This document shows positions 2,078 through 4,479 of a stretch of DNA of 4,527 nt, piece by piece. The notes beneath the pieces were generated by a model. That model made no database searches. It saw only the letters and a program-made list of their open reading frames with translations, and was not told the origin of the DNA. Made by a program: the position numbers and the translations under genes. The stretch is from a virus. Lineage: Duplodnaviria > Heunggongvirae > Uroviricota > Caudoviricetes. The DNA lies in the IMG/VR virus record IMGVR_UViG_2648501338_000001. One strand, written 5' to 3'. Numbering within the stretch: position 1 is the first letter of the stretch; the number at the start of each line of letters is the position of its first letter.

Positions 2078-2497
2078 ATGCTAAAAACTAGGCTTATCAC
2101 CGATTACATCAATTCTTTAATAGGTCAGGAGTTCGTTCAAGGTGAGAATGATTGCAATCTAATTGCATGTAAGATCATCGATATTCTCGCTGGTACTGAC
2201 CTATATAATTCTCTTTATAAAAAATATTCAACTAAAGAAGAAGGCTTGAAAATCTGCAAAGAATTAAGCGGGTATTCAAATATCCTTCAACCAATTAAGA
2301 AACATTTCAAATTAGTCACTGATGATTTACAGGACGGCGACTTACTGGTCACAGCCCACAAATTAGGAAACCGTAATTATTATTCCGTAGTTCCTCATTA
2401 TTCCGGTTATGGCCTCGTTGAAGAAGATGGTATCTGGATGACCATTCCTGTTTCAGACATTGACTATGAACAAGTTTATAGATTCGGGGGTGAATAA
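2078..2497 (+). CDS. small tail assembly protein at the K position (139 aa), with a possible papain-like/NlpC-P60-type Cys...His arrangement
   Basis: ATG at 2078 has a GGAGGT motif 6 nt upstream. The stop TAA at 2495..2497 overlaps the next ATG. The translation contains GENDCNLIA, then GDLLVTAH, then VVPHYSGYG, reminiscent of NlpC/P60 catalytic motifs. The ORF-track start at 1922 was rejected because that extension overlaps the L-like gene and has no ribosome-binding site. Confidence 0.4.
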   Translation: MLKTRLITDYINSLIGQEFVQGENDCNLIACKIIDILAGTDLYNSLYKKYSTKEEGLKICKELSGYSNILQPIKKHFKLVTDDLQDGDLLVTAHKLGNRNYYSVVPHYSGYGLVEEDGIWMTIPVSDIDYEQVYRFGGE

Positions 2498-4479
2498 TGG
2501 GATTTGAAGTATTGGTAGGCGCGGTTATTGCTGGTGCTTCGGCGGGGATGGCGGCAGCCGCAACATTTTTGGTTATGACCGCAGTCGCTATCGGTATGGC
2601 TGCTGGTGCAATGACCTTGATCGCTTCCACTGTAGGCGCACCAAAAACACCGAAAGTACAAAGCCCGGATAATGCGGTGACACTAGGAACATCAAACGAT
2701 CCTAAGACAGTATTACCCGTTCTTTTTGGTACTACCCGCACGGGTGCAATCTGCGTTTATAAGGCAATTTCCAAGCAAGAAAACAATAAGTTAGTGCAAA
2801 TCTTCGCAATTGCCGAGGGTGAAATCGACCATTACAAAGCACTGTTTATCGATAACAAAAATGTTCTTGTTGGTAAGAACATGACGATCCGTGATGGTGT
2901 ACTGGACAAAGGCAACATTAAAGAAGAATACCGGAAAGTCTTAGAAGTTGAGTTCCGCACGGGTAAGAATCCTAACACCGCTTTGTCACTGGCAAAACGT
3001 CATTTAGGATCAGACTGGAACGACAACTACAAAGGCAATGGTATTGCAACCATGTGTATTGTGTTACGTCGTGATGACAAATCTCTTGCTGCTGGTGTTG
3101 ATATTCTCCAGCCAAATAGCCAGGTAGCAGTCGATGTTATGGGCTTAAAGATTCGTAACCTTGAAACTAATGCTATTGAGGCTAGCACTAACGGCGTGGA
3201 CCAGATTTTCCACTACCTAACAAATGAAAAATATGGTTTATCAGTACCAATTGAAAACATCAACGTTGATTCATTCCTGAAAGTACGTAAACAAGTACGC
3301 CAGATGGACCTACATTCAAACGGTGCATGTGATCCGAACGCCAGCTTTAAAGAGAACTTGACTAGCCTTATGCAGACTTTCGGCGGGGTGATGTTCGAAT
3401 CCTTCGGAAGAATTACCCTGAAACTGGATGCTCCTGATATTGTTAAGCATACCTTCAATGAAGACAATATCATGATGGGTAAGGTATCACTGAAAACAGG
3501 TGGCACTAACGGTTATTTCAATACCATTAACGCGATGTATCAAGAACCATCAATTGACTATTCAGAGCAAATGCTACGTTATCCGGCTGATGCTGAAAAC
3601 GATGCTACTATTCGTCAAGATGGTCGAATTATCGCTAAAGATATTGAATATCGTTTTGTTAAGTCTAAAGCCCAGATTGATAAACTTGCGAGTGTAGAAC
3701 GAAATAAATCTCGTATCACTCAGGTTATCAGCTTTATGACTACTGACGCATTCACTGCCGAAGTTTGGGACGTTATCAGCGTAACCTATGATGAATTGAA
3801 GCTGAATAATTCCTTATGGCGTATTACTGCAATTGATCGCTCGATTGATTCTGGTATTGCTGGGATGATGACTATCACCGCCACAGAATATAATTCTCAA
3901 GTTTATACTGACCTGAACTATGCGGCAACTCCAGACAATAGACCAAGTGGTTTACCGGATTCAATGACAGTACAGAAGCCTACTAATTTCAGAATTAAGG
4001 CAACTGGTGAAACCATCTATGGTAAGAACGTTACTTTGACATGGGATGCACCGGAAGATTTTAACCGCTACGGTTTCCAGATTGATTACCGTGTAAGCGG
4101 ATCACCTAACTGGATTAAGCTCGGTCAGACTTCACAGCAAATTTTCAGTGTCAATGCACTGGCTAAAGATCGCTCTTATGATTACCGAGTTTGTGCTTTC
4201 GGTATCATCGCTCGATCCGATTGGGTAGAACTGATTAACCAGAATCCTACTGTTACCTATGAATTGCCGACTCCGGTTATTCGAATCAAAAATCAGGGTA
4301 GCACGCCAGGAACTTTCGAAGGTAATGATCTGATTATCGAATGGGAAAATCAGCAACAATTAGATGTTGAGATCAACGGTGAAACTAACAAGTTTAGTGA
4401 CCTGTTTGAAGCATACATTATCAAGGTGACTGAACCGCCCCGGGAATCCTGGAGACTAAACTTCCTGAGAAAGAGGTAA
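2497..4479 (+). CDS. tail tip / host specificity protein, lambda gpJ-like, with an N-terminal gpI-like hydrophobic Gly/Ala-rich segment; 3' truncated by IS insertion (native sequence 2497..4430, the rest is IS-encoded)
   Basis: ATG at 2497 has GGGGGT upstream. Residues about 1..90 are a Gly/Ala-rich hydrophobic stretch followed by APKTPK and VLPVLFG, resembling the lambda gpI C-terminus (APKARTP...VLPVLYG). The next part (LVQIFAIAEGEID...) resembles the lambda J N-terminus (LLSVIDAISEGPIEG). A fibronectin type III-like pattern lies at about 3979..4236 (TLTWDAP...YDYRVCAFG...RSDWV). At 660 aa it is much shorter than lambda J as I recall it; the frame enters the IS at 4431 and stops at 4477..4479. 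Confidence 0.75.
   Translation: MGFEVLVGAVIAGASAGMAAAATFLVMTAVAIGMAAGAMTLIASTVGAPKTPKVQSPDNAVTLGTSNDPKTVLPVLFGTTRTGAICVYKAISKQENNKLVQIFAIAEGEIDHYKALFIDNKNVLVGKNMTIRDGVLDKGNIKEEYRKVLEVEFRTGKNPNTALSLAKRHLGSDWNDNYKGNGIATMCIVLRRDDKSLAAGVDILQPNSQVAVDVMGLKIRNLETNAIEASTNGVDQIFHYLTNEKYGLSVPIENINVDSFLKVRKQVRQMDLHSNGACDPNASFKENLTSLMQTFGGVMFESFGRITLKLDAPDIVKHTFNEDNIMMGKVSLKTGGTNGYFNTINAMYQEPSIDYSEQMLRYPADAENDATIRQDGRIIAKDIEYRFVKSKAQIDKLASVERNKSRITQVISFMTTDAFTAEVWDVISVTYDELKLNNSLWRITAIDRSIDSGIAGMMTITATEYNSQVYTDLNYAATPDNRPSGLPDSMTVQKPTNFRIKATGETIYGKNVTLTWDAPEDFNRYGFQIDYRVSGSPNWIKLGQTSQQIFSVNALAKDRSYDYRVCAFGIIARSDWVELINQNPTVTYELPTPVIRIKNQGSTPGTFEGNDLIIEWENQQQLDVEINGETNKFSDLFEAYIIKVTEPPRESWRLNFLRKR

Follow-up and report, generated by a model that had tools for sequence, protein, structure and literature searches.

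A gpI-like module at the N-terminus of a tail-tip hub protein in an IS629-flanked prophage remnant

The viral record IMGVR_UViG_2648501338_000001 (Caudoviricetes) is a DNA stretch of 4527 nt, called here the window, in which the open reading frame (ORF) starting at position 2497 encodes a phage tail-tip hub protein. The N-terminal module of this tip protein is homologous, as judged from sequence, to the C-terminal half (residues ~101-223) of gpI, the tail assembly protein of phage lambda. It is very likely that positions 2497-2800, the codons for tip protein residues 1-101, represent a plug and membrane-insertion module that is native to the N-terminus of a siphophage hub protein, and that the gene carrying it here is an inactive remnant. 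Members of the gpI family are by definition separate proteins that contain a ubiquitin-like domain; the module stands outside that family, and it very probably works like the C-terminal half of gpI. From residue ~97 onwards the tip protein is a homologue of lambda gpJ and T5 pb3. Hub proteins with a built-in plug or penetration element have already been published for phage T5, for the Rhodobacter capsulatus gene transfer agent (RcGTA) and for phage R4C, and the element is thus of a known kind, its identification being correct but ordinary.

Anatomy of the module and homology to lambda gpI

The ATG of the tip ORF at 2497 overlaps the stop codon of the upstream gene (TAATG) and is preceded by a Shine-Dalgarno-like run, GGGGGTG. 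From there the frame is continuous, with no stop before the hub domains, and the same was observed in all relatives examined. The protein starts with MGFEVLVGAVIAGASAGMAAAATFLVMTAVAIGMAAGAMTLIASTVG (residues 1-47), followed by APKTPKVQSPDNAVTLGTSNDPKT and then by VLPVLFGTTRTG; the hydrophobic, APK and strand sequences that a preliminary description of the window had quoted for this N-terminus are present in the translation. The gene and the parts of its 5' region are as follows.

2497-4430, + strand: tail-tip baseplate hub protein gene (lambda J / T5 pb3 type), codons 1-645 of 1258
2497-2637, + strand: uncharged Gly/Ala-rich hydrophobic segment, codons 1-47, counterpart of gpI helices H1 and H2 (~residues 101-155)
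2638-2709, + strand: polar linker APKTPKVQSPDNAVTLGTSNDPKT (begins APKTPKVQSPDN), codons 48-71, counterpart of gpI 156-185
2710-2784, + strand: strand motif VLPVLFGTTRTGAICVYKAISKQEN, codons 72-96, equivalent of gpI VLPVLYGEMRVGSRVVSQ and of T5 pb3 264-283
2785-2856, + strand: gpJ-N-terminus-like start LVQIFAIAEGEIDH..., codons 97-120, compared with gpJ 22-58 (LLSVIDAISEGPIEG) and with AFAEGEIDG of pb3

The hydrophobic segment is long enough for two membrane-spanning-type helices. E4 is the sole charge among its 47 residues, residues 5-49 form a run of 45 residues free of D, E, K, R and H, and the maximum of the Kyte-Doolittle 19-residue mean is 2.12. Such a stretch is not due to chance, because the longest run of this type among the other 18 proteins of an intact relative, the prophage L007 (GCA_032490075.1), reaches 26 residues. 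An uncharged N-terminal run of 23-58 residues was found in all 20 aligned relatives, in which G78 is invariant and Y/F77 nearly so, and the family consensus of the strand motif reads IPVVYGxxRxGG. The gpI region corresponding to the polar linker includes the lumenal plug (gpI 159-175). In an AlphaFold2 (AF2) model the region of the strand motif was predicted as beta strands, with a predicted local distance difference test (pLDDT) score of 84-88.

BLASTP of residues 1-120 against gpI, run with compositional adjustment, aligned residues 48-107 with gpI 156-223 at 35% identity (E=4e-7), and gpI chains were the sole matches of the same query among all PDB chain sequences. Two profiles were also used: A1, made from the N-termini of 20 divergent relatives, and A3, restricted to residues 44-96 and so excluding both the hydrophobic and the J-like parts. 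Against PDB sequences, positions 7-103 of A1 matched gpI 116-221 (E=4e-7), A3 ranked gpI 160-210 at the top (E=7e-5 to 7e-4), and A1 further matched T5 pb3 262-313 (E=1e-8); its match to the F2-pyocin tail assembly protein (25vf_9) was non-significant (E=0.067). In the same way, hhalign of residues 48-104 against gpI 158-220 gave a probability of 95% (E=3.3e-8), and PHROG 32, which is the gpI family, was matched at its positions 100-200 of 203 (E=0.004). With the C-terminal part of gpI (98-223) as a query, the sole tblastn match was located at window 2575-2817 (E=2.4e-4). The earlier proposal that a segment resembling the gpI C-terminus forms the N-terminus of the J-like ORF is therefore borne out by BLASTP, profiles, hhalign and PHROG 32 alike. 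Moreover, the module matches the N-terminal part of PHROG 31 ('central tail fiber J'), as does lambda gpI itself, which indicates that an I-like part is already joined to J within the J family profile.

The N-terminal half of gpI left no trace. No match to the ubiquitin-like domain (gpI residues 1-100) was obtained by tblastn at E<=10 in the window or in either of two intact prophages, L007 and L001, and Pfam PF06805 was found in none of the window ORFs, the control lambda gpI 14-97 scoring 100 bits. Both searches being empty, the preliminary description was right that no I-like N-terminal domain lies upstream. It had also expected a Pfam match of the Phage_tail_I C-terminal type, and in this it was mistaken: tip residues 1-100 gave no Pfam match, and none of that kind can exist, because PF06805 (Lambda_tail_I) spans gpI 14-97 only, that is the ubiquitin-like domain. 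For this reason the homology was shown by BLASTP, profiles and PHROGs. A single-sequence phmmer search of 1.84 billion cluster representatives yielded, at E<=1e-3, no protein of the gpI type, which would be short and matched at its C-terminus, so that pairwise BLASTP and profiles were needed to establish the link to gpI.

As seen from the AF2 model and from Foldseek, the remainder of the tip protein has hub domains of the HDII-HDIV fold, after which come fibronectin type III (FN3) domains. The model of residues 1-645 has a mean pLDDT of 77 and is mostly above 80 from residue 71; its Foldseek matches are DT57C pb3 (E=5.6e-32), T5 pb3 (E=2e-30) and lambda gpJ (E=9e-22), together with the hubs of T1, Chi and JBD30, FN3 domains and RcGTA 6tba_8A (E=1.7e-13). 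Pfam contributed a weak match of Phage-tail_3 (PF13550) to residues 285-447 (20.9 bits for a cut-off of 23, E=3.6e-4) and weak fn3 matches. In hhalign of A1 against gpJ 1-140, residues ~97-129 were in register with gpJ 22-58 as expected, albeit weakly (E=0.006), and the motifs IPVVYG... and AFAEGEIDG are contiguous in the single chain of T5 pb3. The C-terminal third of the intact homologue matches gpJ 946-1118 (E=2e-31) as well as Pfam Phage_Tail_Tip and Ig_GpJ_C. The window lacks this central-fibre and receptor-binding region, since the gene is interrupted there by IS629 beyond codon 645.

At the junction of the two parts, residues 97-104 (LVQIFAIA, window 2785-2808) align both with the end of gpI (GGQVVVIGR) and with the first ordered strand of gpJ (LLSVIDAIS), and the split point in lambda looks as if a strand had been duplicated there.

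The mapping of the gpI terminus and of the gpJ start to the same tip residues, ~97-104, could also mean that the product of the single ORF is cleaved after assembly near residue ~96, to give an I-like peptide and a J-like protein in the virion. An NlpC/P60-fold, papain-like protein is encoded directly upstream, and tail protein processing has precedent in lambda gpH and T5 pb2 (PMC12617516, PMC10038345). Cleavage nevertheless appears improbable: no cleavage motif was found, the AF2 model shows residues 76-118 as a confident, continuous beta sheet region, the homologous junction of T5 pb3 is a continuous uncleaved chain in the solved structures (PMC10038345), and NlpC/P60 proteins at the K position are thought to act on peptidoglycan (PMC7296036).

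Even less credible is the view that the hydrophobic N-terminus is an independently acquired signal peptide or membrane anchor whose similarity to gpI is compositional. It is true that the first 47 residues are of low complexity, rich in Gly, Ala and Val, and align readily with similar stretches, and that Pfam is empty for residues 1-100. However, the similarity to gpI survives removal of the hydrophobic part, as the A3, BLASTP and hhalign results given above attest. A positively charged n-region is lacking, the uncharged stretch of 45 residues far exceeds the h-region of a signal peptide, and tail proteins are assembled in the cytoplasm.

Two further candidates concerning this region were rejected. 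The antisense ORFs 2349-2741 and 2476-2661, where the local GC content rises to 0.49-0.53, are supported as genes by nothing, and they are most simply explained by the GCN and GGN codons for Ala and Gly, which the rise reflects. A frameshift or sequencing artefact was also dismissed, as dozens of independent genomes share the reading frame.

The same arrangement in intact and divergent relatives

The intact prophage L007 is 99.95% identical to the phage segment of the window, has the same tip start and lacks an I gene. Its tip protein of 1258 aa is identical to the window copy at 644 of 645 residues. The sole nucleotide difference over 4.33 kb lies at window position 2570 (T, for C in L007) and corresponds to S25L, within the hydrophobic segment. 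The same five genes in the same order were found in 54 of 5426 complete Escherichia coli genomes, their identity to the window being at most 97.5%.

More distant relatives were reached by the exhaustive search of cluster representatives and by tblastn against phages; word-indexed protein searches (residues 1-120 and 1-450) gave fragments and close relatives only. With residues 1-120 as a query, phmmer returned 20 matches among the 1.84 billion representatives, 19 of them genuine. All 19 match at their own N-terminus (positions 2-129) and 13 are 650-2324 aa in length, the short members being contig-end fragments or chimeras. The remaining match, P0021, a 2332-aa repeat protein with 15 stretches, was discarded as spurious. 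Another oddity is P0022 (272 aa), in which the plug module is joined to sequence that by eye resembles a sugar epimerase/GDP-fucose synthase, probably through a chimeric contig or gene call.

The same architecture was observed at 21-42% identity in four cultured phages, Escherichia DCP80, Vibrio henriette 12B8, Providencia PSTCR4 and Pseudomonas Lebethron. Their genes follow the relative order tape measure, distal tail protein (Dit), ~190-aa hub, ~130-150-aa gene and large hub gene, with one additional gene after Dit in Lebethron, and in all four the large hub protein starts with a hydrophobic stretch followed by ..VYG...... No separate I gene with a ubiquitin-like domain was found among intact close relatives. 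The absence of such a gene, which had been noticed in the window itself, where the DUF6950 gene alone lies between the L-like gene (1378-2031) and the tip ORF, thus extends to L007, to the E. coli genomes and to the four phages. The position of the module at the N-terminus of the tip protein is the native gene structure of this lineage.

The preliminary description had left a choice between a natural architecture of the lineage, which is upheld, and an in-frame deletion that joined ancestral lambda-like I and J genes in the present genome while removing the N-terminal domain of I and the I/J boundary. The latter, suggested by analogy to the lambda gene order and by the window being a degraded prophage with IS629 at both ends, is excluded for practical purposes and its chances are negligible, because the same start and gene order are shared by the 99.95% identical prophage, the 54 E. 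coli genomes, the 19 divergent representatives and phages of four genera, because T5 pb3 carries IPVVYG...AEGEID contiguously in one chain, and because the upstream gene is coupled by TAATG and nothing remains there of the N-terminal domain of I.

Of the four phages, DCP80 (L003, PQ671644.1 12763-26028; 141 kb) is filed under Straboviridae/Gaprivervirus, yet it carries a siphovirus-type tape measure/hub/J module with 42% identity. Several genes of this module are unannotated, and either the classification or the assembly looks doubtful.

Comparison with known tail tips and proposed function

In lambda, for which gpI structures are available (PDB 8IYK, 8K35, 8XCG and 9E7M), the region ~101-223 consists of the hydrophobic helices H1 and H2, of a plug that sits inside the tube (159-175) and of strands threading the gaps between the hub domains of gpJ. 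As a trimer in the tip cone, gpI closes off the exit and supports the coiled coil at the C-terminus of the tape measure protein. After binding to LamB, the hub domains swing out, the plug separates and H1 and H2 vanish from the map, their entry into the outer membrane having been proposed (PMC11101478, PMC10721106, PMC12617516). The homologue in F7 pyocin, THIP, for which two transmembrane-type helices are reported as for gpI, behaves similarly (PMC12874032), and 25vf_9 is likewise an F-type pyocin relative of gpI. In T5, the plug is part of pb3 (PDB 7ZHJ, 7ZQB and 8HQZ) and makes close contacts with the C-terminal coil of pb2C, a fragment of the tape measure protein; after opening, it refolds into legs that are anchored in the outer membrane (PMC10038345). 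The megatron, which is the large hub protein of RcGTA and R4C, starts with ~46 hydrophobic residues that form a trimeric iris; this iris closes the channel, and penetration of the outer membrane was proposed for it (PMC7296036, PMC10276861).

The likeness to gpI covers the order of the elements, with two hydrophobic Gly/Ala-rich helices, a P/K-rich polar linker (the plug) and the strand VLPVL(Y/F)G..R.G, as well as the gene position directly after the gene at the K position and directly before the hub domains. On the other hand, gpI is a separate protein of 223 aa with an N-terminal ubiquitin-like domain, whereas the tip module is continuous with the hub domains and devoid of that domain. In parallel, lambda gpK combines JAB and NlpC/P60 domains, and it shares a PHROG with the DUF6950 protein through a weak match of its own; the DUF6950 protein lacks the partner JAB domain. 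As the window has the NlpC/P60 part of K without JAB and the C-terminal part of I without the ubiquitin-like domain, both lambda accessories are absent together.

T5 and DT57C pb3 are the best structural match to residues 71-645, and in T5 pb3 a cis plug immediately precedes the IPVVYG...AFAEGEIDG motif, which is contiguous in a single chain (PMC10038345). Upstream of its residue 262, pb3 showed no sequence similarity to the tip protein. The two proteins differ in that pb3 includes in the same chain a gpL-like hdI domain, which in the window is encoded by a separate DUF2163 gene, and in that refolding turns the T5 plug into a beta-hairpin that has a short LFGL tip, where the tip module would have long hydrophobic helices.

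With RcGTA g15 and the R4C megatron the window shares a hydrophobic N-terminus on the large hub protein itself, which in g15 comprises residues 1-46 and is predicted to span the membrane (PMC7296036, PMC10276861), the gene order Dit, hub (DUF2163 family), NlpC/P60 peptidase and large hub protein, and, in RcGTA, a structurally similar hub part (the 6tba_8A match). In the megatron, however, adhesin-like and peripheral domains come between the N-terminus and the central domain, and the intact homologue of the window tip protein ends in a receptor-binding domain of the lambda J type. A further difference concerns the DUF2163 protein, which is without the 4-Cys iron-sulfur site present in lambda gpL and in the RcGTA and R4C hub proteins.

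Because the same parts occur in the same order, with homology to gpI and, as in T5 and the megatron proteins, within the hub chain, positions 2497-2784 are read as a plug and insertion element acting in cis. The strands that lambda gpI supplies in trans would be contributed by the hub protein, from its first ~96 residues. By extension from the homologues, the module would form a trimeric plug, it would probably contact the C-terminus of the tape measure protein, and its hydrophobic helices may insert into the outer membrane.

Several observations weigh against this reading. The hydrophobic part is of low complexity (the HMMER bias term is 3.4 bits in the A1 alignment), and its alignment to gpI H1/H2 consequently carries little weight alone. 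The AF2 model has a pLDDT below 35 over residues 1-70 and does not resolve the geometry of the helix hairpin and plug, though the low confidence at residues 1-47 (pLDDT 22-32) is expected of a segment that is ordered only in the assembled tip. The Vibrio phage henriette has one short hydrophobic stretch of 23 residues, hence two helices are not universal. The g15 chain was not among the PDB sequence matches of the full protein (E<=1) or of profile A1 (E<=10), so that the link to the megatron N-terminus is solely one of architecture and hub fold, and the comparison with the hydrophobic residues 1-46 of g15 relies on PMC7296036, not on an alignment. Finally, outer-membrane insertion of gpI is itself a proposal in the lambda studies (PMC11101478, PMC10721106, PMC12617516).

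The preliminary description spoke of an I-J fusion. The joined architecture was correctly recognized, but the direction that the word implies need not hold, given that T5 pb3 has the homologous stretch, and the megatron proteins of RcGTA and R4C an analogous element, in cis; the separate I gene of lambda may instead be a derived, split state. The I/J boundary mapping to ~97-104 and the absence of the ubiquitin-like/JAB pair as a unit also suggest lambda as the split and elaborated form. It is thus conceivable, and we hold this tentatively, being nearly evenly divided on it, that the plug/penetration module was ancestrally a hub N-terminus, and that a fission at ~97-104 gave rise to the I gene of lambda, together with its ubiquitin-like domain and the matching JAB domain that gpK carries. 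If so, a lineage with a bare NlpC/P60 homologue of K, no ubiquitin-like domain and no JAB domain would be a natural minimal system, in which a two-helix hydrophobic plug can enter the tail tip without that pair, and it would allow the role of the pair in lambda to be tested. The module offers a sequence-level bridge between the lambda solution, in which gpI acts in trans, and the cis elements of T5 (the pb3 plug) and of the megatron proteins (their N-terminus), and it points to lineages that dispense with the ubiquitin-like/JAB accessories. For annotation, a missing I gene is not a defect where the order is Dit, DUF2163, DUF6950 and 'phage tail tip protein'. The function of I, namely the plug and putative outer-membrane insertion helices, would there reside in the first ~96 residues of the tip protein, which the Pfam model of gpI cannot reveal.

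Neighbouring tail genes and IS629 ends

The phage-derived part of the window is a 4.33-kb siphovirus-type prophage piece, 97 to ~4430, with all its genes on the + strand. Besides the tip gene, the window contains the following features.

1-96, - strand: IS629 left end (left inverted repeat, IRL, side) of a copy extending leftward beyond the window
99-767, + strand: tape measure protein gene, 3' part (last 222 codons), product identical to the C-terminus of the 760-aa L007 protein
818-1378, + strand: distal tail protein (Dit); phrog_1302 'distal tail protein' E=1.8e-16 and a weak Pfam DTP-pb9 B-domain match
1378-2031, + strand: hub N-terminal protein (DUF2163 / Phage_phiJL001_Gp84_N), counterpart of gpL and RcGTA g13
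2078-2497, + strand: DUF6950 gene encoding a 139-aa NlpC/P60-fold protein, at the position of lambda K and RcGTA g14
4431-4527, + strand: IS629 left end (IRL side) of a second copy, running rightward out of the window

The 4.3-kb phage piece is a prophage remnant flanked by insertion sequences. Positions 1-96 and 4431-4526 form a perfect inverted repeat of 96 nt, and IS629 copies of Shiga toxin (Stx) phages, one of which is annotated 'IS3 family IS629', share 99-100% identity with window 1-99 and 4429-4527; the assignment was made from these terminal sequences, the window holding only IS629 ends. IS629 cuts off the 5' part of the tape measure gene, and of the tip gene it leaves codons 1-645. 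The resulting 660-aa ORF is chimeric, consisting of phage sequence to ~4430 and then of 15 IS629-encoded codons (EPPRESWRLNFLRKR); it had been described as a J-like ORF, which is valid through codon 645, the truncation having been overlooked. Being cut by IS629, the tip gene copy is dead in the present genome, and the finding has accordingly no functional consequence for that genome. The IS629/tape-measure junction had no match in an exact-match scan of representative genomes, an Rfam scan of the window gave no family, and a promoter and terminator scan of it gave nothing exceeding chance.

The product of 99-767 occupies the position annotated 'tail tape measure protein' in relatives and ends in a predicted C-terminal helix (DKMVMDAIKRHAKLVAQAVEDAQRRKM). 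This helix comes after an ...INGNV... strand, a layout that is like lambda gpH and fits the plug reading. Between the stop of the tape measure gene (767) and the start of Dit (818), positions 770-815 contain a perfect 15-nt inverted repeat, AAAAGCCCCCATAGT / ACTATGGGGGCTTTT, with a loop of 16 nt, which the terminator scan did not score because the loop is long.

The product of 1378-2031 matches Pfam PF09931 slightly under the curated cut-off (E=2.8e-5) and phrog_2048 'tail protein' (E=2.5e-27), and in relatives the Prokaryotic Genome Annotation Pipeline (PGAP) names it 'DUF2163 / baseplate hub domain-containing protein'. The translation of 217 aa has just two cysteines, C12 and C169, from which follows the lack of the 4-Cys site mentioned above. 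The DUF6950 protein, which is without a JAB/MPN domain, has a confident AF2 model (pLDDT 88.7), and in its family Cys26 is invariant and His94 nearly so.

Around the tail tube gene, the intact prophage also carries (L001 4853-9507; L007 1590-6295) a gene for a long fibre that has Gp34_trimer and Peptidase_S74 domains, and a gene for a T-even-type Gp38 adhesin. L001 has, in addition, a gene for a large serine recombinase, with the truncated ycdX nearby, and this mix of fibre, adhesin and recombinase genes is unusual for a siphovirus-type tail module.

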